This document shows positions 1 through 27,870 of a DNA stretch of 64,000 bases, one piece after another. The notes below the pieces were generated by a model, which did not search any database, had not been told where the DNA came from, and worked only from the letters and a program-made list of their open reading frames with translations. Both the position numbers and the translations under genes were made by a program. Numbering within the stretch: position 1 is the stretch's first letter; the number at the start of each line of letters is the position of its first letter. The stretch is from positions 4,476-68,475 of the forward strand of contig JACKFK010000009.1 of the NCBI GenBank assembly GCA_020632515.1, read 5' to 3'. This DNA comes from Candidatus Omnitrophota bacterium (GTDB taxonomy: Bacteria > Omnitrophota > Gorgyraeia > Zapsychrales > Zapsychraceae).

Positions 1-3000
1 TGAATCGTTTGCTGAATGTGGAATATCCGGATGGCGAAAAGATCTTCTATCAATATAACGATGCGGGACAGATTAAAGCAATCTCGAATGATGTGTTGAT
101 TCTGCCGCAATCGGCATTGGGAGTTGAAAAAAGTCACCAGGTCGCAAAGTCACAAAGTCGCCGAGAGATACCGTTGGCAGTGGCCAGTGATCAGATTTCA
201 GAAAGTCACAATGTCACAATGTCACAAGGTCACAAAGTCACAAGGTCACAAAGTCAACAAGTCGCCAAGTCACAAAGTCACAAAGTTACAAAGTTACCGT
301 TCATTATTGATACGAGCAACGAGCCCTTCGACTTCGCTCAGGACAAGCAACAAGCCCTTCGGCTTCGCTCAGGACAAGCAACCAGCAACCAGCAACAAGC
401 AACTAAACCTTTCTTGTCCCAACTGCTAGAACACCTTTCCAACTTTTTTGTTACTCCTGCTTACGCGCAGAGTAACGCGTATCTTTGGGAAGAGGCGGAA
501 AACGCGGACAGTTTATCATCTCAATTTCAGATCATCAATGAAGCCAGCGCTTCTAACGGCCAGCATACGTTCACCTCAAACACGATTCCTTCGAATTACG
601 CGGTGAATCCGGCTATGGTGGCGACCTACAGTTTTCAAGTGCCGAGCACGGGTAATTATGTTGTTTGGGGGCGTTGCTTGAATACGTTTGAAGACGATGA
701 TTCCTTTTATATTCAAATGGACAGCGGCACGATTCATACCTGGGATATCGCGCAGGTCGGCGGGTATCATTGGGATCAGGTCAGCAGTCGCGGCGGCGCA
801 GATCCGGTGGTGTTTAATTTAAGCGCGGGAACGCATACATTAAAAGTCTATGTGCGGGAAACCGGGACCAAACTGGATCGCATTCTTTTAACCAATGATT
901 TAACGTTTACACCGACGGGTTTAGGTGAAGATCCCGGGGCCGGGAGCAGCGACACGCAAGCGCCGAGTGTGCCGGCGGGATTGTCATTCACCAATAAAAC
1001 GCAGACATCGATGCAGTTGAATTGGAACGCGTCCACGGATAATGTGGGGGTGAGCGGATACCGCGTGGATGTGGCCACGAACAGTACGTTTAGCAGTATG
1101 GTTGCTGGCTTTAATAATTTGAACGTTGGCAATGTGACGGCGAAAAATATTACCGGATTGACGGCAGGAACAACGTATTACGCGCGGGTGCGCGCCTTTG
1201 ACGCGGCGGCAAATACGTCGGCCAGTTCTGTCACGGTTTCGGCGTCGACAAATTCCGCGCCGCCAAGCAACAATACTCCAGGAACAATTTGGATTGAGGC
1301 GGAAGCCGCCGATACTATTGTCGCGCCTTTTCAAATTGACGCGGATGTGAATGCTTCCAGCGGAGAATTTGCTTCCGTGCCGAATGGAAATCAGGATCAA
1401 AATCCTCCAGGGAATGTTATGTTAACGTACAACATTATGATTCCTGAAACCGGGGATTATGTGATTTGGGGGCGAACAATCAGTTTCGCGATTTTAGATG
1501 ATTCGTTTTTTGTGCAGGTTGACAACGGCACAGATTATTTATGGGATACCGAGCCTTCGGCCAATTGGAATTGGGATCAGGTGAATAATCGTAATGGCGC
1601 GGATCCGGTGATTTTTCATTTAACAGCCGGGGCGCATACATTAAAGATTAAAGAACGGGAAACGGGAACGTTGATCGACAAAATTCTCATCACCAATGAT
1701 CTCACTTATGTTCCAAGCGGATTAGGAGAAAGTGGAGGTTCATCCGCAGACACACAAGCGCCGAGTGTGCCGACGGGATTGTCATTTACGAATAAAACAG
1801 AAACATCCATGACGCTTAATTGGAACGCGTCCACGGATAATGTGGGAGTGAGCGGATACCGTGTGGATGTAGCCACGAATAGTACGTTTACCAGTATGGT
1901 TACCGGCTTTAATAATTTGAACGTCGGCAATGTGACGTCCAAAAATATTACCGGGTTGACGGCGGGGACAACGTATTACGCGCGGGTGCGCGCCTTTGAC
2001 GCGGCGGCAAATACGTCGGCCAGTTCCGCGACGGTTTCGGCGTCGACAAATTCTGCGCCGCAAAGCAACAATACTCCGGGAACAATTTGGATTGAGGCGG
2101 AGGCATTTGATACGATTAAGGCTCCATTTCAAACAGCTACCGATGCGAATGCATCCGGAGGTGTTTATGTGTATTCTCCAAATGGACAGTATGAGCAATG
2201 GAGTCCGGGGAGTGTGGAAACAACATATACTCTTGATATTGCGCAGACCGGCGATTATGTGATCTGGGGACGGGTTATCGGCGCGACAGGAAATGATGAT
2301 TCATTCTATGTTCAGATCGACGGTGGTAGTGATTATTTATGGAGTGTGGAAATTAACAGCACTTGGATTTGGGATCAGGTGAGCAGTTTTGGCGGGGCTG
2401 ATCCGGTGGTGTTTCATTTAACAGCCGGCATCCATACGCTTCATGTTAAACAGCGGGAGAACGGGGTGAAGATTGACAAGCTTGTGGTGACCAATGATCT
2501 AACGCTTGTGCCGAGCGGTTTGGGCGGATCTAACAGCAGTACGGCCGCCGCAACTTTGTTTATCAAAGACGTGAAGTATAACGCGTCAGGGCAGATTACA
2601 CGCGTGGAATACGGCAACGGGGTGGTGACCAATTACACGTTTAACACGCTGAATTTGCGGTTGGAGCGGATGCTAACGACCGACGCGCAAGGGGTGAAAT
2701 TGCAGGATCTCAATTACACTTATGATTCGGCCGGCAATATTTTAGGAATCACCGACGCGGTGCATACAGCCACGCAGACGTTTCAATATGATGCGCTCAA
2801 TCGGTTGAAAAAAGCGGTTGGAAATTATGGCACAAAAAACTATGCGTATGATCAAATCGGGAATATAATTCAGAAAGACGGTAAGACCTACACGTATGGC
2901 GCGGGCACTGCCGGGCCGCATGCGGTGACGTCACTTAGTGATGGATCCAGTTTTCAGTATGATGCCAACGGTAATATGATTGTCCGCAGTGAGAGCGGGG

Positions 3001-4520
3001 TCACAACGGAATACGGGTATGACGTCGAGAATCGTCTGGTTAGTGTCAAGGAGAATAGCGCGACCAAAGTTCTTTATCAATACGACGGCGATGGGGGAAG
3101 AACCCAAATGACCATTTCTGCCAGTAGCAAGACAACCACGTTTGTTGGTTCTCTTTATGAGAGTGATGGGTCACGCGCGACGAGTCACGTGTTTCTCGGG
3201 GATACTCGTGTCGCATCGATCACCAACGGGCAGATCGTTTATGTTCATGGAGATCATTTGGGCGGGGCGAATGTGATCACCGCTGCCGACGGGGTCATTA
3301 AGGAGTTGATTGAGTATAAACCGTTTGGTGCCAAGAGCGTGCATGAGAAGTATGGTTCAGGCGAGGCGATTGCCTGGCATTACTTTACGGGCCAGCGGTT
3401 GGATGATGAGGTCGGGCTCTACTACTACGGGGCGAGGTATTATGATCCGTCGCTCGGAAGATTCATTACGGCGGATGGTATAGTGCAAAATCCAGTAGGT
3501 GATCCGCAAACGTTTAATCGGTATTCCTATGTTGGGAATAATCCAATAATTCGGATAGACCCTAGTGGGCATTTTTGGTTTGTTGCGGCAATTGTTGCAG
3601 CTGTTAAAGGGGCAGTCATTGGAGCGACTATTGGAGCTACTACTGCTGCTATAACAGGAGGAGATATTGGAAGAGGGGCGTTATTTGGTGCAATTGGCGG
3701 CGCAGCATTTGCAGGGTTTGGAAGTTTAACGCAATCAGCTTTTCGAATTGCTACTGTTCCGGGAGGAATAGGCCCCATGACTTCTGGAGCAACCTTTGCT
3801 GCTGATCTTGCTGGCGGAATAATTGGCGGCGCTGCTGGTGGCGCTGCTAGCGCAGCCTATTTAGGGAGTGATCCCTTAAGTGGAGCAGGGATTGGAGCCC
3901 TTAGTGGGGGACTTTTTGGACAAGTCAGCAAAATGAGAGGGACAGGATGGCCAGGAGTTGGAAGAGTTGCTGCCGCAGGTATTGCAGGTGGGTTAGTTTC
4001 AGAGGTAGCAGGAGGTTCTTTCATAGATGGGTTTGCCTTTGCTGGGACTGTTGCGGGAGCAGATTTTATTTATAGAGCGATAGTGAGTACTCAACCAGGT
4101 GCAGAAGACATAGGATCAACTACGAAAACTGCAAGGCATCCAGGAAAATATAAGATGGGGTTTGATGAAAATGGAAATGAGAAATTATTGCGAGTTTTAA
4201 ATGTAGATAAACATTTAAGAAGTAATACAGGAATTCCTTCTTTTCTTGGAGAAACTGGAAATGCATTTTCACAACATTTTTGGGCTAGTGAGACAGGGGC
4301 TGTAATGAATTTTATGGCTAAATATATTCCAGGAATTAATGGGATGTCTTATGCTCATGATGTTTCAGGACATTTTCTAACAAGTACTTTTGGTAAATCG
4401 ATAAATGGTAAATTTTTTAATTTTCAAACAATGCCAATTTATTATGGAGTTAATAATATAGGAGCAGCGATTAATGATTTTCCAGCGTTAATTGGGATTT
4501 ATAATGTGTATGGAGAATAA
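1..4520 (+). CDS. RHS/YD-repeat polymorphic toxin, 5' end outside the window (frame 3 is open back to base 3, so the TTG at 9 is not a real start)
   Basis: YD repeats occur on both sides of the central array (NVEYPDGEKIFYQYNDAGQ; NYTYDSAGNILGITD; QYDALNRL; YDANGNM). An RHS-associated core (YFTGQRLDDEVGLYYYGARYYDPSLGRFITAD) ends in NPIIRIDPSGH, with DPSGH at 3558-3572. A 315-aa variable C-terminal region follows. Confidence 0.85.
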   Translation, partial: NRLLNVEYPDGEKIFYQYNDAGQIKAISNDVLILPQSALGVEKSHQVAKSQSRREIPLAVASDQISESHNVTMSQGHKVTRSQSQQVAKSQSHKVTKLPFIIDTSNEPFDFAQDKQQALRLRSGQATSNQQQATKPFLSQLLEHLSNFFVTPAYAQSNAYLWEEAENADSLSSQFQIINEASASNGQHTFTSNTIPSNYAVNPAMVATYSFQVPSTGNYVVWGRCLNTFEDDDSFYIQMDSGTIHTWDIAQVGGYHWDQVSSRGGADPVVFNLSAGTHTLKVYVRETGTKLDRILLTNDLTFTPTGLGEDPGAGSSDTQAPSVPAGLSFTNKTQTSMQLNWNASTDNVGVSGYRVDVATNSTFSSMVAGFNNLNVGNVTAKNITGLTAGTTYYARVRAFDAAANTSASSVTVSASTNSAPPSNNTPGTIWIEAEAADTIVAPFQIDADVNASSGEFASVPNGNQDQNPPGNVMLTYNIMIPETGDYVIWGRTISFAILDDSFFVQVDNGTDYLWDTEPSANWNWDQVNNRNGADPVIFHLTAGAHTLKIKERETGTLIDKILITNDLTYVPSGLGESGGSSADTQAPSVPTGLSFTNKTETSMTLNWNASTDNVGVSGYRVDVATNSTFTSMVTGFNNLNVGNVTSKNITGLTAGTTYYARVRAFDAAANTSASSATVSASTNSAPQSNNTPGTIWIEAEAFDTIKAPFQTATDANASGGVYVYSPNGQYEQWSPGSVETTYTLDIAQTGDYVIWGRVIGATGNDDSFYVQIDGGSDYLWSVEINSTWIWDQVSSFGGADPVVFHLTAGIHTLHVKQRENGVKIDKLVVTNDLTLVPSGLGGSNSSTAAATLFIKDVKYNASGQITRVEYGNGVVTNYTFNTLNLRLERMLTTDAQGVKLQDLNYTYDSAGNILGITDAVHTATQTFQYDALNRLKKAVGNYGTKNYAYDQIGNIIQKDGKTYTYGAGTAGPHAVTSLSDGSSFQYDANGNMIVRSESGVTTEYGYDVENRLVSVKENSATKVLYQYDGDGGRTQMTISASSKTTTFVGSLYESDGSRATSHVFLGDTRVASITNGQIVYVHGDHLGGANVITAADGVIKELIEYKPFGAKSVHEKYGSGEAIAWHYFTGQRLDDEVGLYYYGARYYDPSLGRFITADGIVQNPVGDPQTFNRYSYVGNNPIIRIDPSGHFWFVAAIVAAVKGAVIGATIGATTAAITGGDIGRGALFGAIGGAAFAGFGSLTQSAFRIATVPGGIGPMTSGATFAADLAGGIIGGAAGGAASAAYLGSDPLSGAGIGALSGGLFGQVSKMRGTGWPGVGRVAAAGIAGGLVSEVAGGSFIDGFAFAGTVAGADFIYRAIVSTQPGAEDIGSTTKTARHPGKYKMGFDENGNEKLLRVLNVDKHLRSNTGIPSFLGETGNAFSQHFWASETGAVMNFMAKYIPGINGMSYAHDVSGHFLTSTFGKSINGKFFNFQTMPIYYGVNNIGAAINDFPALIGIYNVYGE
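132..403 (+). repeat. Low-complexity repeat element read in frame inside the RHS ORF: GTCACAAR octamer arrays plus two GCTCAGGACAAGC-containing units and (AGCAACC)n
   Basis: Octamer arrays lie at 132-160 and 203-296. Near-identical ~30-nt units AGCCCTTCGRCTTCGCTCAGGACAAGCAAC lie at 322-351 and 352-382, and AGCAACC-type repeats at 383-403. The stretch translates as SHKVTKSQ-type and FDFAQDK/LRSGQA-type peptide. Confidence 0.9.
480..2530 (+). repeat. Intragenic tandem duplication with a 798-bp period: three beta-sandwich (CBM-like) modules interleaved with two FN3 domains
   Basis: Two anchors recur 798 bp apart: GACACRCAAGCGCCGAGTGTGCC at 951 and 1749, and GGAACAATTTGGATTGAGGCGGA at 1281 and 2079. 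The FN3 segments (about 951-1270 and 1749-2068) match at roughly nine in ten positions by eye. The CBM-like modules (WIEAEA..DDSF.VQ.D..W.WDQV..ADPV.F.L.AG.HTL) are more diverged. Confidence 0.9.
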
Positions 4521-4539: not shown

Positions 4540-5031
4540 ATGAAAAAAATAATAGTTATTGTAATATTATTTTTTTCATGTGGATGTACAAGCGTATCTT
4601 TAGGTGGTATTAATTATAATAATGCTCCAAGAGGGTTTCACACTAGTAATACTTCAATTATTTATATTCTTCGAGAGAACGCAACTCCTACCGCATTTGG
4701 AGCTAAAATTTTAATTAACAATAAAAAAGTTTGTGCGCTGCCAAATAAGGGATTTACTTGGGTTGAAGTAATTCCTGGGGAAAAAATGATATTAGCAAAA
4801 TGGCCATCTATAACTGGACAAGAAGATAGTACTATTAGGATTAATGCTAAAGAAAATGAAACATATTACATATTATTAAATCATGATAGGACAATAGGGG
4901 GGTCTGTTTTTAGTCCGTACAATATGATTAATGCATTTGTAATAACAAACAAAAGTCTAGCTCAAAATAAAATGAAAGATATGAAATATTTTAAGAGTAA
5001 GAGAACGGACCAGGTTGTTTTATGTCAATAA
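4540..5031 (+). CDS. Small lipoprotein and candidate immunity protein for the RHS C-terminal toxin (alternative start at 4510 overlaps the toxin stop)
   Basis: It has a signal peptide with a lipobox-like sequence (MKKIIVIVILFFSCGC) and sits immediately downstream of the toxin tip. It is AT-rich like the toxin tip. Its last codons (KRTDQVV) are encoded by a copy of the GAGAACGGACCAGGT repeat. Confidence 0.5.
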   Translation: MKKIIVIVILFFSCGCTSVSLGGINYNNAPRGFHTSNTSIIYILRENATPTAFGAKILINNKKVCALPNKGFTWVEVIPGEKMILAKWPSITGQEDSTIRINAKENETYYILLNHDRTIGGSVFSPYNMINAFVITNKSLAQNKMKDMKYFKSKRTDQVVLCQ

Positions 5032-5230
5032 TTCGGTAACTTTTTCAAGTTTTTGAAAGGGCGTTTGGTATTTAATGCCACCATGAACGCGCCTGTGATT
5101 GTAATCGTATATATATTGTCCTAATTGCTCTTTGAATTCTTCAATATCTTTAAATGTGTGTGGTCTAATAAGCTCGTTTTGAACAATTTTAAAGAAAGCC
5201 TCTACTTTACCATTAGGCTGAGGATAATAA
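5020..5230 (-). pseudogene. C-terminal remnant of a DDE (rve-type, IS481/IS3-like) transposase
   Basis: Only about 70 aa remain. They carry the integrase-core E region (PQPNGKVEAFFKIVQNE) and the tail YNHRRVHGGIKYQTP. The N-terminal part is replaced by the 50-nt repeat at 5229-5280. Confidence 0.7.
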
Positions 5231-5280
5231 AGAGAACGGACCAGGTACATCTCGAGGGACACGTTGAGTGAAAGCAGTTC
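5229..5280 (+). repeat. REP-like ~50-nt repeat, copy 1 (AAGAGAACGGACCAGGTACATCTCGAGGGACACGTTGARTGAAAGCAGTT)
   Basis: It is nearly identical to 5506-5558, 277 bp downstream. The 5' 17-mer also occurs at 4998-5015 and 5559-5577, and inverted at 6245-6258. Confidence 0.85.
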
Positions 5281-5632: not shown

Positions 5633-6229
5633 ATGGCGCGGGTATCAAGGAATGAATTACTTTATAAAGATTGTTATGCTCATGTGATATCACGATCGAT
5701 TCGCAAAATGAAGATTTTTAACGATGAAGAGGATTTCATCCAGTTTAAATATTTACTTTTGCAGGCTAAGAAAATAGGTCAATTTCGGGTATATCATTAT
5801 TGTGCAATGCAAACGCATTTCCATCTGGCTGTACAAATGGGGGATGTATCATTATTTGCGAATGCAATTCGGGATTTAAAAAGATCTTATGTTTACTGGT
5901 TTCACACAAAATATAAAATTAGTGGGCCGATATGGCGGGAACGATATCGAAGTTTGTTGATTGAGGATGAGAATTATTTATATACGTGTGGATTGTATAT
6001 TGAAAACAATCCGGTGAAAGCTGGGTTAGTGCAGCAATCGGATCAATGGGCGCACAGTTCAAGTCGGTATTATATTAGAGGAAGTAATGATGTCCTAGTC
6101 GATGAATATGAAAGGGACGTTTGTAAAATGAGTGATATTATGCTTGATGAAGAGGATTTTGAAAAGGGAAGTGTGATTGGATCCAGTTTTTTCCGATTTC
6201 AGTTTTATGATAGGCGTAAGAGAAGCTGA
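5633..6229 (+). CDS. IS200-like / REP-associated tyrosine (Y1, HUH) transposase, copy 1
   Basis: It has the HUH motif (QTHFHLAV) and the catalytic Tyr helix (YIENNPVKAGLV), plus WRERY. It is flanked by GAACGGACCAGGTCC at 5563-5577 and its inverted copy at 6245-6258. Confidence 0.8.
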   Translation: MARVSRNELLYKDCYAHVISRSIRKMKIFNDEEDFIQFKYLLLQAKKIGQFRVYHYCAMQTHFHLAVQMGDVSLFANAIRDLKRSYVYWFHTKYKISGPIWRERYRSLLIEDENYLYTCGLYIENNPVKAGLVQQSDQWAHSSSRYYIRGSNDVLVDEYERDVCKMSDIMLDEEDFEKGSVIGSSFFRFQFYDRRKRS

Positions 6230-6324: not shown

Positions 6325-7086
6325 ATGCGACGAACGAAAGGGAGAGGTGTTTTTGAATTAATTTTAACAGGGGTGGTCTGCTGCGGAATGCTGATGGGTG
6401 CGGCAGGAAAAGCTGAGAGTTTTATACTCATTAATGAGTTCCTGGCTGATCCGGCTAGCGGACCCAGCGGCGATGCCAATGGCGACGGGGCTACCTCAAG
6501 CAGTCAGGATGAATTCATCGAACTGCTTAACTACAGCGACGAGGATGTAAATCTTTCCGGCTGGTCTTTAAGCGACAATCTACGGACCCGCCATGTCTTT
6601 TCCGATTCTACGATTATTAATTCGTATGGTTATTTTGTCATTTTCGGCGGAGGCGACTTCTCGGCAGCCAATTGGCAAAGCGCTTCCACAGGAACGCTGG
6701 GTTTAAATAATTCCGGCGATACGATCACGCTGTTTAACAGCGATTTATTGCAGATTGATCAGATCGTTTATGGCAGTGAAGGCGGGCAAAACCAATCGCT
6801 GACACGGTTTCCGGAAGGGGTACCAGGGAGCCCCTTTGTTTTGCACAGTGAATTAGCCCAGGCGCAAGGTCGGTTGTTTTCGGTGGGTGAAAGTATCGAC
6901 GGCCAGCCGATCGCGCCGGAGATTGTCCTGCCGGAAGAGCCGTTGCCTGAGATGTCGGAGTCAGGGGAAAATCCCGTGGTGCCGGAGCTGCCGGTGGCCG
7001 TGTATTTTCTTGTTGGGTTGGCTGGGCTTCATTTCCAACGGAGAACGGTTCTCGCTAAAGTCTTGGCGGGAAAAACGTTGGAGTAG
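6325..7086 (+). CDS. Secreted lamin-tail-domain (LTD) protein with a PEP-CTERM-like C-terminal anchor (alternative start 6304)
   Basis: It has a signal peptide and the LTD pattern (ILINEFLADP..DEFIELLNYSDEDVNLSGWSLSD..GLNNSGDTITLFN). The C-terminus reads VPELPVAVYFLVGLAGLHFQRR. The gene is visibly GC-richer than its surroundings. Confidence 0.7.
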   Translation: MRRTKGRGVFELILTGVVCCGMLMGAAGKAESFILINEFLADPASGPSGDANGDGATSSSQDEFIELLNYSDEDVNLSGWSLSDNLRTRHVFSDSTIINSYGYFVIFGGGDFSAANWQSASTGTLGLNNSGDTITLFNSDLLQIDQIVYGSEGGQNQSLTRFPEGVPGSPFVLHSELAQAQGRLFSVGESIDGQPIAPEIVLPEEPLPEMSESGENPVVPELPVAVYFLVGLAGLHFQRRTVLAKVLAGKTLE

Positions 7087-7096
7087 AGGTGTCCCT

Positions 7097-7603
7097 ATGA
7101 TTCGCCCGCGACGGTTTTATTACGCCAAGTCTATTTATCACGTCATTGCCCGCGGCAATAATCGGCAGAAAATTCTGAAATACCCCACAGACAAACAATC
7201 CTTTTTGAATAGTCTGACAAAATATAAAGGGCTCTTTTCTTTCCGGTTATACGCTTTTGTGATAATGGACAATCACATCCATTTGATGATTGAGGCTGAT
7301 GAGCATTTTAATATCTCCAAAGTCATGCAAAGGATTTTATTGTCTTATAGCGCGAAATACCGTAGAAAATATAAATATGTGGGGCATGTCTGGCAGGGGC
7401 GGTTTGTGAGTTTCAATGTTAGCGGAGATCATTACGTGGAGGAGTGTTTGCAGTATATACACCGCAATCCTGTAAAGGCGGGAATTGTTGACGTTGAGGC
7501 AGATTATCGATGGAGTAGTGCGCGGTTTTATGTTAAGCGTAAGGTTGTTTCAGATGGTTTGCTGTATGATTTGGATTTAGATGGTTCTGAGGGACACTTC
7601 TAA
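7097..7603 (+). CDS. IS200-like / REP-associated tyrosine (Y1, HUH) transposase, copy 2 (diverged from copy 1)
   Basis: It has HUH (MDNHIHLMIE), GRFVS, and the Tyr helix (YIHRNPVKAGIV). The ATG at 7097 follows the LTD stop. The tracked 6887 start would overlap the LTD gene and is unlikely. Confidence 0.8.
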   Translation: MIRPRRFYYAKSIYHVIARGNNRQKILKYPTDKQSFLNSLTKYKGLFSFRLYAFVIMDNHIHLMIEADEHFNISKVMQRILLSYSAKYRRKYKYVGHVWQGRFVSFNVSGDHYVEECLQYIHRNPVKAGIVDVEADYRWSSARFYVKRKVVSDGLLYDLDLDGSEGHF

Positions 7604-7740
7604 CTTAAATACTTGCAGAGTATATTGTTGGAGAGAACCGTTCTCAAAGATGGGGTGTCTATTTGCGGGAAGGGCTGTCCGGGAGTGTCTGGGTTTGTCA
7701 TCTTGAAAAGTATAGGGGGATGTTGCATACTTGTCGGAAT

Positions 7741-8122
7741 TAGTGGTAAGTGATAAGTCAGAAGCAAGTCACAAGGTCACAAGGTCACAAGGTCACAAAG
7801 TTATAAGGTCGCAAAGTCATAAGGTTGCAAAGTCACAAAGTGTTGAATCCGGCAAAAGAATTTTAGCTATCAGGCATCAATTATCAGCTATCAAAAAGTA
7901 GTATGGTCTTCTGTCGCCAGGATACAGTGACCATTGAAAAGTCACAAAGCCACAAAGTCATAAAGTCACAAAGTCGCAGATATTTTGTAATCTAGCAACT
8001 TTATGACACGGTGACATTTTGAAATCTGACGACTGACAGCTGACAGCTACGAATCAGATAACTGACACGGTGACTTTGTGACAAGGATGTCGGATATGTG
8101 TGCCTGTGACTTTAAAATACTG
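7741..8122 (+). repeat. Octamer-array foldback element, copy B (full length, intergenic)
   Basis: It starts TAGTGGTAAGTGATAAGTCAG, followed by (GTCACAAR)n at 7767-7840. The conserved core is GAATCCGGCAAAAGAAT..TAGCTATCAG..GTCGCCAGGATRCAGTGACCA, with a second array at 7940-7977. GCAACTTTATGACACGGTGAC and inverted octamers (GTGACTTTGTGAC) follow near 8068-8084. Confidence 0.85.
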
Positions 8123-14631: not shown

Positions 14632-14904
14632 ATGGCGTCGGAAAAAAATATTCAGTGGGAAGCTTCAACAAAGTTAAAATTTGAACAAATGGTGGAGAAA
14701 GTGCCGGTATTTCTGCGCGGGATGGCGCAGGAAAAGGTGGAGAAACGGGCCTTTGAACTGGTCGCGCAAGATCAGCGCACTATTATTGAAGAGAAAGATT
14801 TGGTTACGGCGTTTTTTGATGCCACACCGTTTGGTTTTCATGGACCGATGAAATGTGATATGGAAGAGTTAGGGATTGATTATACGAAGTATGGGTTTGA
14901 TTAG
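14632..14904 (+). CDS. Small protein with a PCP-reductase-type (protochlorophyllide reductase C-terminal-like) domain
   Basis: The sequence WEASTKLKFEQMVEKVPVFLRGMAQEKVEKRA resembles the PCP_red domain. This assignment is from memory only. Confidence 0.35.
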   Translation: MASEKNIQWEASTKLKFEQMVEKVPVFLRGMAQEKVEKRAFELVAQDQRTIIEEKDLVTAFFDATPFGFHGPMKCDMEELGIDYTKYGFD

Positions 14905-15212
14905 TGGTAAGCGCTAAGTGATTAGTGGTAAGTCAGAGAAAGTCACAAGGTCACAAGGTCACAAAGTCGCAAAGTGCCGAATCCGGTAAAAGAATCTTAG
15001 CTATTAAACATCAGTTTTTAGAAAAGTAATGGTCTCCTGTCGCCAGGATGCAGTGACCAGTGAAAAAGCCACAAAGCCACAAAGCCAACAAAGTCATAAA
15101 GTCACAAAGTCGCAGATATTTTGTAATCTAGCAACTTTATGACACGGTGACTTTGCAACATTGTGACCTTGTGACATTCTGAATACTGACAGCTACGCAC
15201 CGGATAACTGAA
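14902..15212 (+). repeat. Octamer-array foldback element, copy C (full length, fills the whole intergenic gap)
   Basis: The left arm 14932-14977 (GTCAGAGAAAGTCACAAGGTCACAAGGTCACAAAGTCGCAAAGTGCC) is approximately the reverse complement of the right arm 15141-15190. The internal core and second array (15068-15112) are shared with copy B. The element starts on the upstream stop codon and ends 7 nt before the next ATG. Confidence 0.9.
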
Positions 15213-16365: not shown

Positions 16366-16755
16366 GTGGAAGCTATTAAAGTTCGTTTAGATAAATGGCT
16401 TTGGGCGGTGCGGATTTGTAAAACACGGACGATCGCCACAGATTTATGCAAGCGTCAACGGGTCACTATCAACGGTCAGTATGCAAAACCTTCCCGCGAT
16501 ATTTCTCCTGGAGATCTTATTGTAATCAAAAAAGACGGCATCGAATGGCAGTATAAAGTCTTACAAGGCATTGATAAACGGGTTGGTGCCAAGATTGCGG
16601 CGCAAGCTTGTGAAGATGTGACACCAGCGGAGGCGTTAGCGAAGTTTAAGATGGTGAAATCTTCTTGGGTGCCGCGGCGGGATAAAGGCGCTGGCCGCCC
16701 AACCAAAAAAGATCGAAGAGAGATGGAGAGGTTTTTAGATAGTGATAAGTGTTAA
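16366..16755 (+). CDS. hslR: S4-domain RNA-binding heat-shock protein 15-like (GTG start)
   Basis: RLDKWLWAVRICKTRTIATDLCKRQRVTINGQYAKPSRDISPGDLI is an S4 domain. Confidence 0.7.
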   Translation: MEAIKVRLDKWLWAVRICKTRTIATDLCKRQRVTINGQYAKPSRDISPGDLIVIKKDGIEWQYKVLQGIDKRVGAKIAAQACEDVTPAEALAKFKMVKSSWVPRRDKGAGRPTKKDRREMERFLDSDKC

Positions 16756-16900
16756 GTGATAAGTGAAAAATAAGTTAAGAAATCACAAGGTCACAAAGTG
16801 CCGAATCCGGCAAGAAAACCTTAGCTATCAGACATCAGTTACAATTTGATCAACTAATTTTATGACTTTTTTTCAGTCAGTGGAGACTGGAGATTCGCGA
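16741..16900 (+). repeat. Octamer-array element, copy D (shortened)
   Basis: It reads GTGATAAGTGTTAAGTGATAAGTG..AATCACAAGGTCACAAAGTGCCGAATCCGGCAAGAAAACCTTAGCTATCAGACATCAG, then CAACTAATTTTATGAC. The middle section and the right arm are missing. Its start overlaps the hslR stop. Confidence 0.75.
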
Positions 16901-23614: not shown

Positions 23615-23750
23615 GATCGATAAAGGTAAACCTTCCGCAAGGATGGGACACAAAACTATCTCGACGTATTGTTGGATAAATAAAGTCGAGACCCCGATAG
23701 GATCGGGGCAGGGTCCTTAAATTTTTAAGGATAGCCAGTTGCCGTAACAG
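23615..23750 (+). promoter_or_regulatory. Probable c-di-GMP class I (GEMM-I-like) riboswitch aptamer
   Basis: GGTAAACCTTCCGCAAGGATGGGACACAAAAC parallels the GEMM-I core GGCAAACC-(stem, GNRA loop)-GGGACGCAAAGCC. The helix CCTTCC/GGATGG is capped by GCAA. There is a CTCGAC/GTCGAG helix, and a distal TAGCCAGTTGCCGTAA resembles GGTAGCGGGGTTACCGA. Confidence 0.5.
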
Positions 23751-23811: not shown

Positions 23812-26800
23812 ATGATGTTTAAACGAGTGACAATTAAATTTATATTTTTATCAGGGATGTTTTTATGTCTGCTTACAGTAACTGCACGTAATGGGTATGC
23901 TGCGCAGAAATTATTAGGTTGGTCCGATGCGCAGGCTGCAACATGGCAGAAAATGCGGACGGAAAATCATCCGCTATGGCAACGTTTGGTTAATGAAGTG
24001 CATTCAGATCGGTATCGTCCAGGAGATTATGGTTTGCGTGACGGCATGATGTATTTAATCACTGGTGATAAATCTTATGCAACCTCAGCTTGGCATAAAA
24101 TGGATAATTGGTGCGGTAAGACTTATAGAGGAACGGGAGGAGACGATGCTTGGTGTAATACTTTTTGGAAAGGAAAAATTCCTCGTGATGGAACGCGGGA
24201 ACAGTTTTTACGTTTAGCCATGCTGTATCATTGGACGCGTGAGGCTTTGTCGGTTGAAGATCGTAAAAATATGCGCGATGTTTTAGAGCTTTGGACTGAT
24301 TTGGTTCTTTCAGACCGTAAGACGCATGGAACGCGGTTGAGTGATAGTGATGAAACCGTCGGGCATTATTTTGGCGCGGTTATTTACGCGTTGGCCATTC
24401 AAGATGAGGATCCACAACGATCTCAAGCGATTCTCAATTTTGCCGGAACCAACACGGGATCAAGCGATACCGCTCCGTTAGGCGGTCTTAACGCAACAGG
24501 CGCAAATAACAATTCATGGCGAAATGCGATTGCTCGTTTCGCGCAGTTAGCTAAAGGTGGTCAATGGATGGAGAGTTCTTCTTATAATAGAGGAACTGTG
24601 CGTTTGTTACTGCAAGGTGTTGCCGCGGTGAATAATTTTTTAGGAGAAGACAAGTTTCCGGAAATCACAGCATTGTATCCGGATTTTGCCAAGGCTTTTG
24701 TGTTGGAGGTTGCCCCGGATTTACGTGATTTTTATCAATGGGGTGATAATCAGGAAACGCATTATATTCGGTATTACTCTCGCGTGGCAACACTCGGGGT
24801 TGTTTGCGGATTATCAAAAGATCCAGAGTGTTTATCATTATATGATGAGCTTCTAAGCCGCAGTGAAGAAACTATTCATGAGGATTATCTTCCGTTTGCA
24901 GATCCATATTCGCCGCGAAAAGTTCTCAGTAGTCATGGGGCTTATCATGCGGATGGCCGTGGTATCGCTTATCATCGGCAAGGGTGGAATCTGGAGGATA
25001 GTTTTTTTGGTTCACAGTTTACCAATGTAACGCATGTTGACCACCGATTAGGGGCGTTGAGTAATTTCGCCCTTTATCGTCATGGGGACTGGGTGATTGA
25101 TAATACACGCGGATATTATGGGCATTGGGATCAGGATGCGCCTTATCAAAATACAATGCTTGTCAACGGAGGTTTTTCTAATTTAGAAGAAGCTTACGGA
25201 GAAGTTGCCTTTTCTGCGGATGAGACGTATCTTTATCACGCCGGAACAACCGGAGGGCAATACCGCGATGAACGGTTTGGAAATCCACCTTTAGAAACTG
25301 TGCATGAATGGACGCGTAGTCACGTGTACTTTCACAATGAGGATGGTTCGGACAGTATTGTTATTTTTGACCGTTTAAATGCAGATGATCCAACCGATGA
25401 AGATATTCAACCCGTTGGGAAATTTGATCGCTTACCAAAGTTAATTAAACAACGCATCAATGGCGTGGAGGCAAAGCATCAATGGATTTTGCATTTAACA
25501 GAATTAAACCCGCGGATCGAAGGTAATGAAATCTCCTGGATGGGAGAATCTAATGAAGAGGTGACGCTAACGACATTTATGACAGATTATGTTACGCAGA
25601 TTTATGATGAAAAATTATTGCACAATAAAGGTTATCCATTGTATTTAGGCGGATATGTTCGTGATAAGGATTTGGGTTATCAATTACGTTTGATTCCTAA
25701 TCAGAAAAGCGGCTGGCAGACGTTTCTCAATTTAATTCATGTCGGCGGTAAGGTGGAAAAAAGTAAATTGGAATCATTATCCGGAGAAAAAGCGCAGGGG
25801 GTTTTGTTAAATTTCGAGCAAGAGCAGAAGGTTGTTTTGTTCAGCGCAAAAAAAGGAGAAACTATTGCGCCGACTTCGACGGATTCTTCCGGCCGTGTTG
25901 TGCATGCCCCCCAAAAATTATCACAGTTGGCAGCGTTGCGGTATTTTAAATCCGGATTTGAGATCAATATTGAAGTTTTTAATCCAGCCAAAGTCTGGAT
26001 TATGGATTTAGATCCAAATCTAAAGTGGAATGTTGAGGTTGATGGAAAGGTGATTGAAGATGCTTTGGTCAATGATCAAGGTGTGATGCAGTTTACTTTA
26101 GCCAAGGGGAGTTACTTATCTAAAGTTTTCACAGATTCAACGTGCGATGCTTTACAGTGGGAAGGATGTCAGATTCAAGAGGATTGTGAGAAATTGAATT
26201 ATTTCTGGTATTTAAATAAATGTCATTCTTCTCCAGAAGTTTTGGCCTGTGGGGTTGATCATATTGAATATTGTAAGACAGAAGAGGAGTGCTTGTCTTT
26301 GGGAAATTATTGGTATGATCAATCGTGTCATAGCCAATCTGCTCCGGCCGTGTGCACGTCAGACAGTTTATCTTTATGCTTAACAGAAAACGATTGTCAG
26401 CAAGCTCAAGGATTCTGGTATGACGAAGGATGTCATGTGCAAACAAAAGAAGACGAAAATAATATTAAGACCATTACACTTTATCCTGTGGCCGACACGC
26501 AAATAAAGGGATGGATTAAGGAAGCAAATGTAAATGGTCAGGGGTTAGGTGTTAAACGTGTTTCCGATAATTATGATCGGGTGAGTTTATTAAAATTTGA
26601 TTTATCTTCTTTGCCAGAGGGTGTTGTTGTTAAGGATGCTTTCTTGAAATTTACCTTGATGGCGAACCAGCGTTGGAATCGACAGAATTATATTTATGAA
26701 GGATTAAAAGATTGGAGTGAAACGGAAGCCAATTGGTTGGAATACCGTAAAGGACAAGCCTGGGGTGTGCCGGGAGCTCGGGGACAAGGAACAGATTTAA

Positions 26801-27870
26801 ACGGTGTTTATGGAAGTGTTGTTGGTGCTGTTGCCATGATTGATCAAGAAACCGTGGCTAAGGACGTTGAGATCACATATCAAACCAATGAGAATTTTAA
26901 AGATTTAATTGCTCAAAAGAGTCCTGGGATTTTAAATTTAGTAATGCATCAAGAGAATCGCGATAATTCCGACGCGTTGTATTACGATCGGGAAAATCCT
27001 GATTCCAACAAACGACCAAAATTAATTATTCAATATGAAGAAATTAATATAGTTAATAAATTGAGTTGCGATTCACAACATTTAAATTTGTGTTTAAGCG
27101 CGACGGATTGCGGTAAGGCTTCAGGATATTGGTATGATGAGAGCTGTCAGGCGACGCCGCAAATAACTTGTGATGCGCATCATCGTAATTTGTGTTTAAA
27201 TCCAGCTGCATGTGAGTCGGCGCAGGGGTTTTGGTATGAGGATGCATGTCATGACGAGGCCCCGATTCTAAAAGAGAAAACGATTACGGTGGCATTAAGC
27301 CCGACAGCAGATTTGCAATTAAAGGGCTGGAGTAAAGATACAAATTTTAATAACCAAGGATTGGGAATTAAAAGTGTCTATCATAAATTTGATCGAACCA
27401 CGTTGTTGAAATTTAGTCTGGAAGATATTCCGAAAGAGGCTGTTATTAATGATGTGCAATTGAAATTCACATTGGCTTCTAAACAGCGTTGGAACCGGCA
27501 GAATTATGTTTATGAAGGATTGGTGGATTGGAATGAAACTGAGGCAACTTGGAATGAATATCGCAAAGGGCAATCATGGGCAGAAGGCGGAGCGCGCCGC
27601 TCTGGTCAGGATATTAACGGCGTTTATGGAACTATGCAGGGGGCAATAGCTTTTATCAATCAAGGCACAGCTGCTTCTGGAGCCCTTATTTCGTATCAAT
27701 CCCTCAATGGATTTCAGCAATTGGTTAAAGATAAAGCAGGGTCTATGCTTAATTTGGTTATTCATCAGGAAAAAGGGGATAATTCAGACGTATCCTATTA
27801 TGATCGAGAAACCAATGCTATTAACAAGCGTCCGCAGTTATTTATTACTTATACGATCTTAGCTCCATAG
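23812..27870 (+). CDS. Large secreted protein: heparinase II/III / alginate-lyase-like N-terminal region, five four-Cys modules, and two DNRLRE/CBM96-like domains
   Basis: It has a signal peptide and the heparinase II/III-like stretch HVDHRLGALSNFALYRHGDWVIDNTRGYYG. C-x7-C-x5-C-x11-C modules lie at 26143-26435 and 27067-27250. There are two paralogous ~190-aa domains (RVSLLKFDLSSLP..DWSETEANW and RTTLLKFSLEDIP..DWNETEATW). Confidence 0.55.
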   Translation: MMFKRVTIKFIFLSGMFLCLLTVTARNGYAAQKLLGWSDAQAATWQKMRTENHPLWQRLVNEVHSDRYRPGDYGLRDGMMYLITGDKSYATSAWHKMDNWCGKTYRGTGGDDAWCNTFWKGKIPRDGTREQFLRLAMLYHWTREALSVEDRKNMRDVLELWTDLVLSDRKTHGTRLSDSDETVGHYFGAVIYALAIQDEDPQRSQAILNFAGTNTGSSDTAPLGGLNATGANNNSWRNAIARFAQLAKGGQWMESSSYNRGTVRLLLQGVAAVNNFLGEDKFPEITALYPDFAKAFVLEVAPDLRDFYQWGDNQETHYIRYYSRVATLGVVCGLSKDPECLSLYDELLSRSEETIHEDYLPFADPYSPRKVLSSHGAYHADGRGIAYHRQGWNLEDSFFGSQFTNVTHVDHRLGALSNFALYRHGDWVIDNTRGYYGHWDQDAPYQNTMLVNGGFSNLEEAYGEVAFSADETYLYHAGTTGGQYRDERFGNPPLETVHEWTRSHVYFHNEDGSDSIVIFDRLNADDPTDEDIQPVGKFDRLPKLIKQRINGVEAKHQWILHLTELNPRIEGNEISWMGESNEEVTLTTFMTDYVTQIYDEKLLHNKGYPLYLGGYVRDKDLGYQLRLIPNQKSGWQTFLNLIHVGGKVEKSKLESLSGEKAQGVLLNFEQEQKVVLFSAKKGETIAPTSTDSSGRVVHAPQKLSQLAALRYFKSGFEINIEVFNPAKVWIMDLDPNLKWNVEVDGKVIEDALVNDQGVMQFTLAKGSYLSKVFTDSTCDALQWEGCQIQEDCEKLNYFWYLNKCHSSPEVLACGVDHIEYCKTEEECLSLGNYWYDQSCHSQSAPAVCTSDSLSLCLTENDCQQAQGFWYDEGCHVQTKEDENNIKTITLYPVADTQIKGWIKEANVNGQGLGVKRVSDNYDRVSLLKFDLSSLPEGVVVKDAFLKFTLMANQRWNRQNYIYEGLKDWSETEANWLEYRKGQAWGVPGARGQGTDLNGVYGSVVGAVAMIDQETVAKDVEITYQTNENFKDLIAQKSPGILNLVMHQENRDNSDALYYDRENPDSNKRPKLIIQYEEINIVNKLSCDSQHLNLCLSATDCGKASGYWYDESCQATPQITCDAHHRNLCLNPAACESAQGFWYEDACHDEAPILKEKTITVALSPTADLQLKGWSKDTNFNNQGLGIKSVYHKFDRTTLLKFSLEDIPKEAVINDVQLKFTLASKQRWNRQNYVYEGLVDWNETEATWNEYRKGQSWAEGGARRSGQDINGVYGTMQGAIAFINQGTAASGALISYQSLNGFQQLVKDKAGSMLNLVIHQEKGDNSDVSYYDRETNAINKRPQLFITYTILAP

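Follow-up and report, generated by a model that had tools for sequence, protein, structure and literature searches.

An array of CBM-like modules and FN3 domains within the YD-repeat region of a putative Tc BC-like Rhs toxin of Candidatus Omnitrophota

The insertion of additional domains in the sequence of YD-repeat shells is already known, and the general idea is not new. In the mosquito protein SGS1, a carbohydrate-binding module (CBM) and a carbohydrate-recognition domain of lectin type (lectin-CRD) derive from segments inserted in the Rhs/YD sequence, lie on the exterior of the shell and are putative receptor domains (PMC9935623). Other insertions in YD shells are the propeller of TcB, and propeller 2 and the wedge of SGS1 (PMC9935623). 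Here we present the analysis of a 64,000-nucleotide (nt) stretch of DNA from a Candidatus Omnitrophota bacterium, termed the window below (contig JACKFK010000009.1 of assembly GCA_020632515.1, positions 4,476 to 68,475), at the 5' end of which lies an Rhs gene. In its product, three CBM6/CBM35-like β-sandwich modules and two fibronectin type III (FN3) domains form an array that stands between YD repeats. An earlier reading of this DNA from its letters alone (the original prediction) had regarded Rhs shells as normally continuous and such an insertion as unusual, which overstates the case in light of the CBM and lectin-CRD inserted in the YD sequence of SGS1 (PMC9935623).

The window protein shares the YD shell, the DPxG-type Rhs core and a variable toxin with the Tc BC cocoons (TcdB2-TccC3 and YenB-YenC2; PDB: 4o9x, 4igl) and with the Rhs proteins of type VI secretion systems (T6SS) (RhsP, PDB: 8h8a; RhsA, PDB: 7q97). 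The likeness to Tc BC extends to the homologues of the window protein, which carry SpvB, TcdB_toxin_midN and FG-GAP propeller domains, and in TcB a β-propeller is likewise inserted in the shell-forming chain. In contrast, the solved bacterial shells (8h8a, 7q97) have a plain turn at the junction where the window protein carries its array.

Architecture of the Rhs protein and the junction in its YD shell

Starting at nt 3, frame 3 runs without interruption to a stop codon at 4518-4520, and its translation supplies 1505 residues within the window; the open reading frame (ORF) runs past the 5' end of the window and the start of the protein lies upstream. The order of domains along the chain is YD strand, linker, module, FN3, module, FN3, module, YD repeats, Rhs core and presumed toxin. 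The features that bear on the array are:

3..92 (+): final hairpin strand of the YD repeats preceding the junction (...YQYNDAGQIKAISND; ...EYPDGEKIFYQYNDAGQIKAISND), from the translation
93..470 (+): linker of 126 amino acids (aa), stop-free in frame 3 and defined by comparison of the junction with homologues P0011, P0012, P0121, P0122, P0123 and P0161
130..294 (+): imperfect 8-bp microsatellite (AAAGTCAC-type), with about 12 units at 198-294, plus 130-161 (TRF, repeat family D1)
312..386 (+): 31-bp REP-like direct repeat in 2.3 copies, with the peptide FDFAQDK / LRLRSGQA (TRF, repeat family D9)
471-2516 (+): array of module, FN3, module, FN3 and module (Pfam, module alignment)
471..917 (+): CBM6/CBM35-like β-sandwich module 1, Pfam GH115_C-like (Pfam, module alignment)
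969..1226 (+): FN3 domain 1 (Pfam fn3)
1272..1718 (+): CBM6/CBM35-like module 2, the copy used for modelling (AlphaFold2, Foldseek)
1767..2024 (+): FN3 domain 2 (Pfam fn3, best stretch residues 589-674)
2070..2516 (+): CBM6/CBM35-like module 3 (Pfam)
2553..3572 (+): C-terminal part of the YD shell and Rhs-associated core (YYGARYYDPSLGRF ... IRIDPSGH; Pfam RHS_repeat)

As the original prediction had stated, YD repeats are found on both sides of the array, running up to nt 92 and restarting at 2553 (TLFIKDVKYNASGQ...; TLFIKDVKYNASGQITRVEYGNG...). Its three β-sandwich modules and two FN3 domains were likewise recovered by a Pfam search of the translation, as GH115_C (PF17829; three stretches, 68.9 bits, cutoff 24.1) and fn3 (PF00041; two stretches, 79.5 bits, cutoff 25). 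Downstream of the array, RHS_repeat (PF05593) is matched in three stretches (57.6 bits, cutoff 22), and the Rhs core has a DPxG(L/H)-type end (YYGARYYDPSLGRF...IRIDPSGH, nt 3423-3572). The YD strand at 3..92 is 61% identical to residues 398-433 of P0011 and 59% identical to residues 1369-1405 of P0012, both of which are internal to YD shells. The C-terminal YD part (YD_C) is 51-56% identical to the YD_C of P0011, P0012 and P0008, and FN3 domain 1 shares 55-61% of its residues with the paired FN3 domains in P0012 and P0008. In P0012, SpvB, TcdB_midN and FG-GAP domains occur in the same chain, while at the locus of P0011, the closest homologue, an SpvB/FG-GAP/TcdB_midN gene lies just 5' of the Rhs gene; there the Rhs gene, a small gene and a Y1 transposase gene (L005 16402-17010) follow each other in the same order as in the window. 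Because of its homology to the P0012 and P0011 loci, we read the window protein as the C-terminal part of a putative Tc BC-like Rhs toxin. Many of the closest Rhs homologues carry the Omnitrophica label.

Four kinds of evidence support the view, advanced by the original prediction, that the array has been inserted among the YD repeats of one polypeptide. 1) The open frame: over 100-480, stops occur in frames 1 and 2 but are absent from frame 3, and the frame is also uninterrupted over the junction in P0011, P0012, P0121-P0123 and P0161. 2) The inserts of homologues: at exactly the same junction P0011 carries 764 aa, made up of a GH115_C-like module, DUF4215 Cys-rich repeats and Laminin_G_3, between strands that are 61% and 56% identical to those of the window protein; P0012 has 661 aa at exactly this junction, with two FN3 domains flanked by two copies of an unnamed β-rich domain, and the truncated P0161 shows FN3, F5/8-type-C and LamG there. 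3) The wider set of relatives: a median of about 1.5 aa is added at the junction in the 122 relatives that have both anchors, and the nearest relatives have a loop of 49-104 aa. 4) The solved shells: P0012 spliced free of its insert aligns unbroken across the junction to RhsP 8h8a (...KLVRSDGLAF-EFWYDSEG...) and RhsA 7q97, from which the junction emerges as an ordinary hairpin turn of the shell, and the YD_C-equivalent region of P0012 aligns to Rhs cores in the PDB.

The loop at this turn has a recognisable sequence of its own. In P0122 and P0123 a basal form of 46-49 aa reads ISND.(a)V.PPL...MFA..K....F.ISW.EP..LGIKEAEAA-AP.TLFV, and its motif F.ISW.EP..LGIKEAEAA can be traced in the long-insert forms as PAYAQ, EAYAQ or EVYAS. 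Since PAYAQ of the window protein aligns with KEAEAA of the loop, the arrays are placed between this motif and the next strand. The linker of the window protein opens with VLILPQSALG, similar to (Q/L)xV(L/M)PPL in relatives, and closes with the conserved motif FLSQLLEHLSNFFVTPAYAQ (411-470); it represents the expanded form of this clade-specific loop.

Repeat DNA encodes approximately two thirds of the 126-aa linker (about 80 residues). The microsatellite, with a longest perfect stretch of ~32 nt, is read in frame as a KSQSHKVT-like low-complexity peptide. Elsewhere in the window the 8-mer element lies at 7766-7980, 14942-15175 and 16782, outside any ORF of at least 150 aa, and its 29 matches in the window compare with 0.14 expected. 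A composite dispersed repeat is present in three copies (7730-8100, 14900-15210 and 16740-16850), also outside ORFs of at least 150 aa, in which 8-bp GTCACAA(A/G) blocks flank a conserved core (..gaatccggcaaaagaat..tagctatca..); a related copy lies in the linker at 130-294. Rfam has no family in the linker or in the dispersed repeats. Units of the GTCACAAG-type also occur in the linker DNA of P0012, at the same place and in a different sample, and P0121 has another low-complexity stretch at the loop site, whose resemblance to a translated repeat is our own reading. In our reading, the loop is structurally permissive and can accommodate dispersed repeats that have inserted there in frame. An FDFAQDK...LRHGSGQA peptide element, the same as that encoded at 312-386, is also found inside an unrelated ORF of another metagenome contig (L002 ~3050-3150); the FDFAQDK repeat is widespread and frequently stands in frame inside ORFs.

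Three other origins of the insert were considered and rejected. An intein is ruled out, as no Hint family is detected in the window protein and the Hint domains of relatives lie at a different site. The alignment of PAYAQ with the KEAEAA loop in array-free relatives rules out that it is a relic signal-peptidase site, captured with the 5' end of the gene for a secreted protein. Finally, the array does not travel with orphan toxin cassettes: 3' of P0012 (L004 18400-27818) orphan YD_C-toxin cassettes, at least five in number, each precede a small ORF and match the final 150-260 shell residues of the main gene at 79-90% identity, and their homology starts 80-200 aa past the junction. Scans aimed at the 5' part of the gene found no relative among genome contigs and, among metagenome contigs, only the distant hits L001 and L002.

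Inserts at other positions were also seen. In P0148, a more distant Rhs protein, one CBM_4_9-type domain (residues ~365-525) lies in the neighbouring hairpin, ~45 residues before the junction; in bacterial Rhs proteins, CBM inserts that decorate the shell are thus not restricted to a single turn. Pfam lists PT-HINT, Intein_splicing and Hint families for P0156, P0122 and P0123. By eye, P0156 has a Hint-like segment within the C-terminal shell half, between ...YDGDGGRTKK and ...IFVGSLYE, which would give this clade of Rhs proteins another site of insertion.

Fold, family and relative age of the array modules

Module 2 was modelled with AlphaFold2 from a 17-sequence family alignment, giving a mean predicted local distance difference test (pLDDT) score of 94.2, and this model supersedes an earlier one from a 4-sequence alignment (pLDDT 62). 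When it was compared with the PDB using Foldseek, the top matches were CBM35 (3zm8, 2wz8) and CBM6 (5fui, 2cdp) domains, with TMq 0.65-0.70, a probability of 1.0 and E-values of 4e-7 to 1e-5; the C-terminal domain of GH115 enzymes (6nps, 4c91) was also matched. The model supports a β-jelly-roll fold like that of CBM6/CBM35, and the description of the modules as lectin-like in the original prediction stands at the level of fold. Their context supports this description as well, and the modules may bind sugars.

Simple sequence searches with the module yielded little: a search of PDB chains with the module sequence gave no match, and a word-indexed homologue search with the module alone gave 2 matches only. 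With an exhaustive profile search, 9400 cluster representatives were recovered at E <= 1e-3, a number that falls to 4199 when E <= 1e-10 is required, and the 150 best hits listed have 2-7 matched module stretches per protein. In the 10 family proteins scanned, the module is paired with FN3, PKD, cadherin-like, CARDB or TSP3 domains, and no glycoside-hydrolase or lyase domains were found in these ten. All ten have spacer domains, and module-plus-spacer arrays hence recur among the family members examined. The module alignment contains conserved W, Y, R, D, E and H positions, and at 13 columns the 17 aligned sequences, which include the window modules, show no variation, so that these columns are kept by all three modules.

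The direct repeats of the array are spaced at 801 and 798 nt, which the original prediction had taken as a 798-bp tandem duplication that was still expanding. Codon alignments do not bear this out. Between module pairs the amino acid identity is 43-60%, nonsynonymous divergence (dN) is 0.34-0.54 and synonymous divergence (dS) is 1.4-2.1, i.e. saturated. The FN3 pair shows 93% amino acid identity, with dN of 0.04 and dS of 0.30. At the nucleotide level the FN3 copies (951-1250 vs 1749-2048) are 91% identical, compared to 55-65% for the modules, and here the original prediction was correct. The similarity is confined to a tract of 353 nt with 32 mismatches between its copies:

951..1303 (+): homogenised tract, copy A, which starts in the inter-domain linker DTQAPSVP, covers FN3 and reaches the first strand of the module that follows (91% vs copy B)
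1749..2101 (+): homogenised tract, copy B (91% vs copy A)

The 5' edge of the tract is sharp, with identity rising from 47% to 93% at nt 951, within the inter-domain linker, and its 3' end falls in the first strand of the following module; domain borders are not followed. These values indicate an ancient triplication of a module-plus-spacer unit, probably overlaid by a gene-conversion tract (or a second partial duplication). By this account the array is in all likelihood an old, stable arrangement and no currently expanding repeat. Because dN is well below dS and the 13 invariant columns are retained, the modules are read as being under selection, which indicates that all three have probably been maintained by purifying selection. 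The longest exact run shared by the tract copies measures 59 nt, less than the usual length of a sequencing read; short reads therefore distinguish the copies, and the copy number presents no assembly ambiguity.

Classical Rhs genes combine a GC-rich core with an AT-rich tip, and the base composition of the window gene follows this pattern. The array (470-2530) has a GC content of 49.4%, as against 38.1% for the whole window, and in this the original prediction was right. YD_C (2531-3677), however, has 49.3%, and GC at third codon positions (GC3) is 0.51 in the array and in YD_C alike. The high GC accordingly extends to the downstream YD/Rhs-core and is no trait of the array alone, and since the array has the composition of the shell, it is no compositionally foreign recent arrival. 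The 110 nt of upstream YD sequence in the window have 40.9% GC, and the C-terminal end of the toxin (4051-4520) has 33%.

A proposed explanation and its alternatives

From what has been shown of the domain order, the junction, the class of fold, how old the copies are relative to one another and how the insert varies between homologues, we propose that the array is a targeting device carried by an expanded hairpin turn in an Rhs (Tc BC-like) toxin, an explanation to which, as a whole, we give a probability of roughly 0.7. Under this proposal nt 93-2552 would represent an expansion of a single β-hairpin turn of the YD shell by ~820 residues. The conserved loop of ~50 aa would have gained ~80 residues of in-frame repeat DNA, which would form a long, probably disordered tether, and the five-domain array would have been gained downstream of the ...PAYAQ motif. 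Such a flexible tether would let a linear array exit and re-enter the shell at a single turn. The shell would enclose the C-terminal toxin, as is established for the Tc and T6SS Rhs cocoons, and because the lumen cannot hold ~690 folded residues in addition to the toxin, the array would lie outside. There it would present three CBM-type sites, with the FN3 domains as spacers, and multivalent attachment to a glycan or other ligand on the surface of the target would dock the toxin-loaded shell. The array would in this respect be an analogue of the CBM and lectin-CRD on the SGS1 shell, and of the receptor-binding domains supplied by TcA in Tc toxins. Triplication of the module-plus-spacer unit would have come first, and gene conversion would later have homogenised the 353-nt tract that spans FN3. 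The inserts of homologues are all drawn from ligand-binding β-sandwich families (LamG/ConA-like, F5/8-C, CBM_4_9 and GH115_C-like), which supports a role in targeting.

Several points weigh against this explanation. The window does not include the 5' part of the gene, and both the intactness of the whole protein and an SpvB/TcdB-like N-terminus are assumed from the homologues. We infer the outward-pointing orientation of the hairpin and the binding of sugars by the modules, whose identity to characterised CBMs is just 12-20%. Some of the linker consists of repeats whose other copies in the window lie outside ORFs of at least 150 aa, and the 8-mer repeat is stop-free in every forward frame, so that the open frame there is, taken alone, weak evidence of translation. 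Lastly, stand-alone proteins exist (P0008, P0149 and P0154) in which a good signal peptide is followed by display domains, such as FN3, and by a C-terminal half-shell that starts from the same junction. In P0008 (L003 10001-13147) the Rhs core and toxin come after ~370 residues of YD repeats, and its gene sits between toxin-antitoxin pairs with no gene for an N-terminal shell half upstream or nearby.

The repeat DNA of the linker, its stop-free frames and the stand-alone proteins also favour a two-gene alternative, in which the YD sequence before nt 92 would be the tail or remnant of an upstream gene, 93-470 would be former intergenic DNA, and the array would form the N-terminus of a shorter Rhs protein. 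This is the arrangement that the original prediction had set against its own reading; it exists elsewhere in P0008, P0149 and P0154, and was not encountered in the window. Here frame 3 alone is free of stops over 100-480, a scan of 1-1000 found no promoter-like or plus-strand terminator-like sites, and no start codon followed by a credible signal peptide precedes PAYAQ in the translation. Furthermore, the frame is kept over the junction in P0011, P0012, P0121-P0123 and P0161, both ends of the linker match the conserved loop, and the two strands beside the junction lie next to each other in relatives that lack an insert and in the solved shells, and we regard two genes as unlikely. An even less favoured possibility, in our estimate extremely improbable, is that the upstream YD sequence and the array were joined by chimeric assembly of a short-read metagenome-assembled genome. 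The linker repeats do recur at three or more other sites in the window and such repeats are typical sources of misjoins; yet ISND with the hydrophobic PPL-like stretch upstream and ...PAYAQ downstream are the two ends of one loop in independent homologues, and the same order of parts is seen in homologues from other samples. That the array is a young tandem repeat still adding 798-bp units, or that its copy number is collapsed or uncertain in the assembly, would fit the regular period of 801/798 nt and the 91% identity of the FN3 copies, and a truly recent expansion is known in the family: P0013 consists of [module-CARDB]x3, with near-identical module segments in which 2 of ~150 residues differ. 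We hold this to be very unlikely for the window, given the saturated dS (1.4-2.1) and 43-60% amino acid identity of its modules, a dS of 0.30 and 32 mismatches even in the similar tract, and copies that are distinguishable by virtue of a longest identical run of 59 nt.

Two further ideas would extend the hairpin-expansion proposal. The 8-bp microsatellite might serve as a slipped-strand contingency switch for the toxin, in which a change of +/-8 or 16 nt would shift the frame and truncate the protein after the N-terminal shell half. As the period of 8 is no multiple of 3, any such change in repeat length shifts the frame, making phase variation possible; the ~12 units lie inside the ORF, the shifted frames hit stops at 303-308 or 427, and GTCACAAG-type units stand at the same place in P0012 from another sample. 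We nevertheless consider the switch unlikely: the units are imperfect (longest perfect stretch ~32 nt), and other copies of the element are scattered outside long ORFs, as would be expected of a repeat spread over the genome that happened to enter a permissive loop. A more comprehensive reading, which is speculative and on balance rather improbable, would make the hairpin a programmable targeting slot of Omnitrophota-type BC-like Rhs toxins, seeded by repeats and with stand-alone by-products. Lectin/CBM cassettes would be swapped in this slot, conferring on each toxin its own receptor specificity without a TcA partner; the 8-mer and REP-like repeats, linked to Y1 transposases, would be both a recombination substrate and a frameshift-prone switch; and P0008, P0149 and P0154 would be break-off or donor forms.

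Presumed toxin tip, genomic neighbourhood and relation to known systems

The region downstream of the Rhs core contains the following features:

3573..4520 (+): variable C-terminal region, the presumed toxin, with a glycine-zipper-like hydrophobic stretch followed by a low-GC domain (translation)
4540..5031 (+): small lipoprotein-like ORF (DUF2846), candidate immunity gene (Pfam DUF2846, 36.4 bits; GC 29.5%)
5633-6229 and 6887-7603 (+): two IS200-like Y1 transposase ORFs (Pfam Y1_Tnp), 3' of the toxin/candidate immunity pair

The C-terminal region (315 aa after the core) matches no Pfam family at E <= 0.01. The DUF2846 ORF begins 19 nt past the stop of the toxin and is, by its position, a candidate immunity gene. 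The gene for a lamin-tail-domain protein is the next one after the Y1 transposase ORFs downstream of the toxin. These transposases may be of the REP-associated type that is tied to dispersed repeats. Beside the toxin tip, an 80-aa ORF at 5020-5262 (-), ending in ...YNHRRVHGGIKYQTPFQKL, resembles by eye the C-terminal fragment of an integrase-core (rve-type) transposase, which suggests decayed mobile-element DNA. Farther away, a c-di-GMP-I riboswitch at 23615-23698 (+) (Rfam RF01051, 35.7 bits vs a gathering score of 35) lies ~110 nt 5' of the gene for a 1352-aa DNRLRE-domain protein (23812-27870).

How the Rhs/Tc-like cocoons of uncultured bacteria find their targets is largely unknown, and the hairpin described here hosts varied domains of glycan-binding type. 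On the proposed explanation, target recognition by the cocoon itself would become directly testable, and a design structurally documented in SGS1 would be extended back to bacteria. The linker would further offer a concrete case of dispersed repeat DNA tolerated in frame within a loop of a structural protein, and a permissive loop of this kind would be a natural graft site for binders on Tc/Rhs delivery shells. In the literature searched, three aspects appear to be undescribed: the hairpin of bacterial BC-like Rhs proteins as a hot spot for interchangeable arrays of binding domains, the in-frame dispersed repeats in that loop, and the stand-alone derivatives from the same junction.

With respect to the modules, the closest described systems are CBM6 (5fui, 2cdp), CBM35 (3zm8, 2wz8) and the GH115 domain (6nps), with which they share the jelly-roll (TM ~0.7) and, through Pfam, a GH115_C match above cutoff; they differ in their low identity (12-20%), and in that the module of the window family is joined to Ig-like spacers in the ten members scanned. 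With respect to the shell, Tc toxins bind their receptor through a separate TcA subunit, whereas in the window protein the chain that forms the cocoon itself carries binding-type domains; a search that was not exhaustive revealed no TcA-like gene, either in the window or in those homologous loci that were inspected. In teneurins, the accessory domains lie N-terminal to the shell or plug it, and are not known to form a tandem array in one hairpin. The likeness to teneurins lies in the combination of a YD shell with NHL, FN-plug and lectin-type recognition domains (PMC5851990; PMC9935623). SGS1 resembles the window protein in having Ig-like β-sandwich domains of sugar-binding type inserted in the YD sequence. 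It differs in being a eukaryotic protein with single domains at several sites, whereas the window protein is bacterial and carries in one hairpin, whose contents vary among homologues, a five-domain tandem array with a long low-complexity tether.

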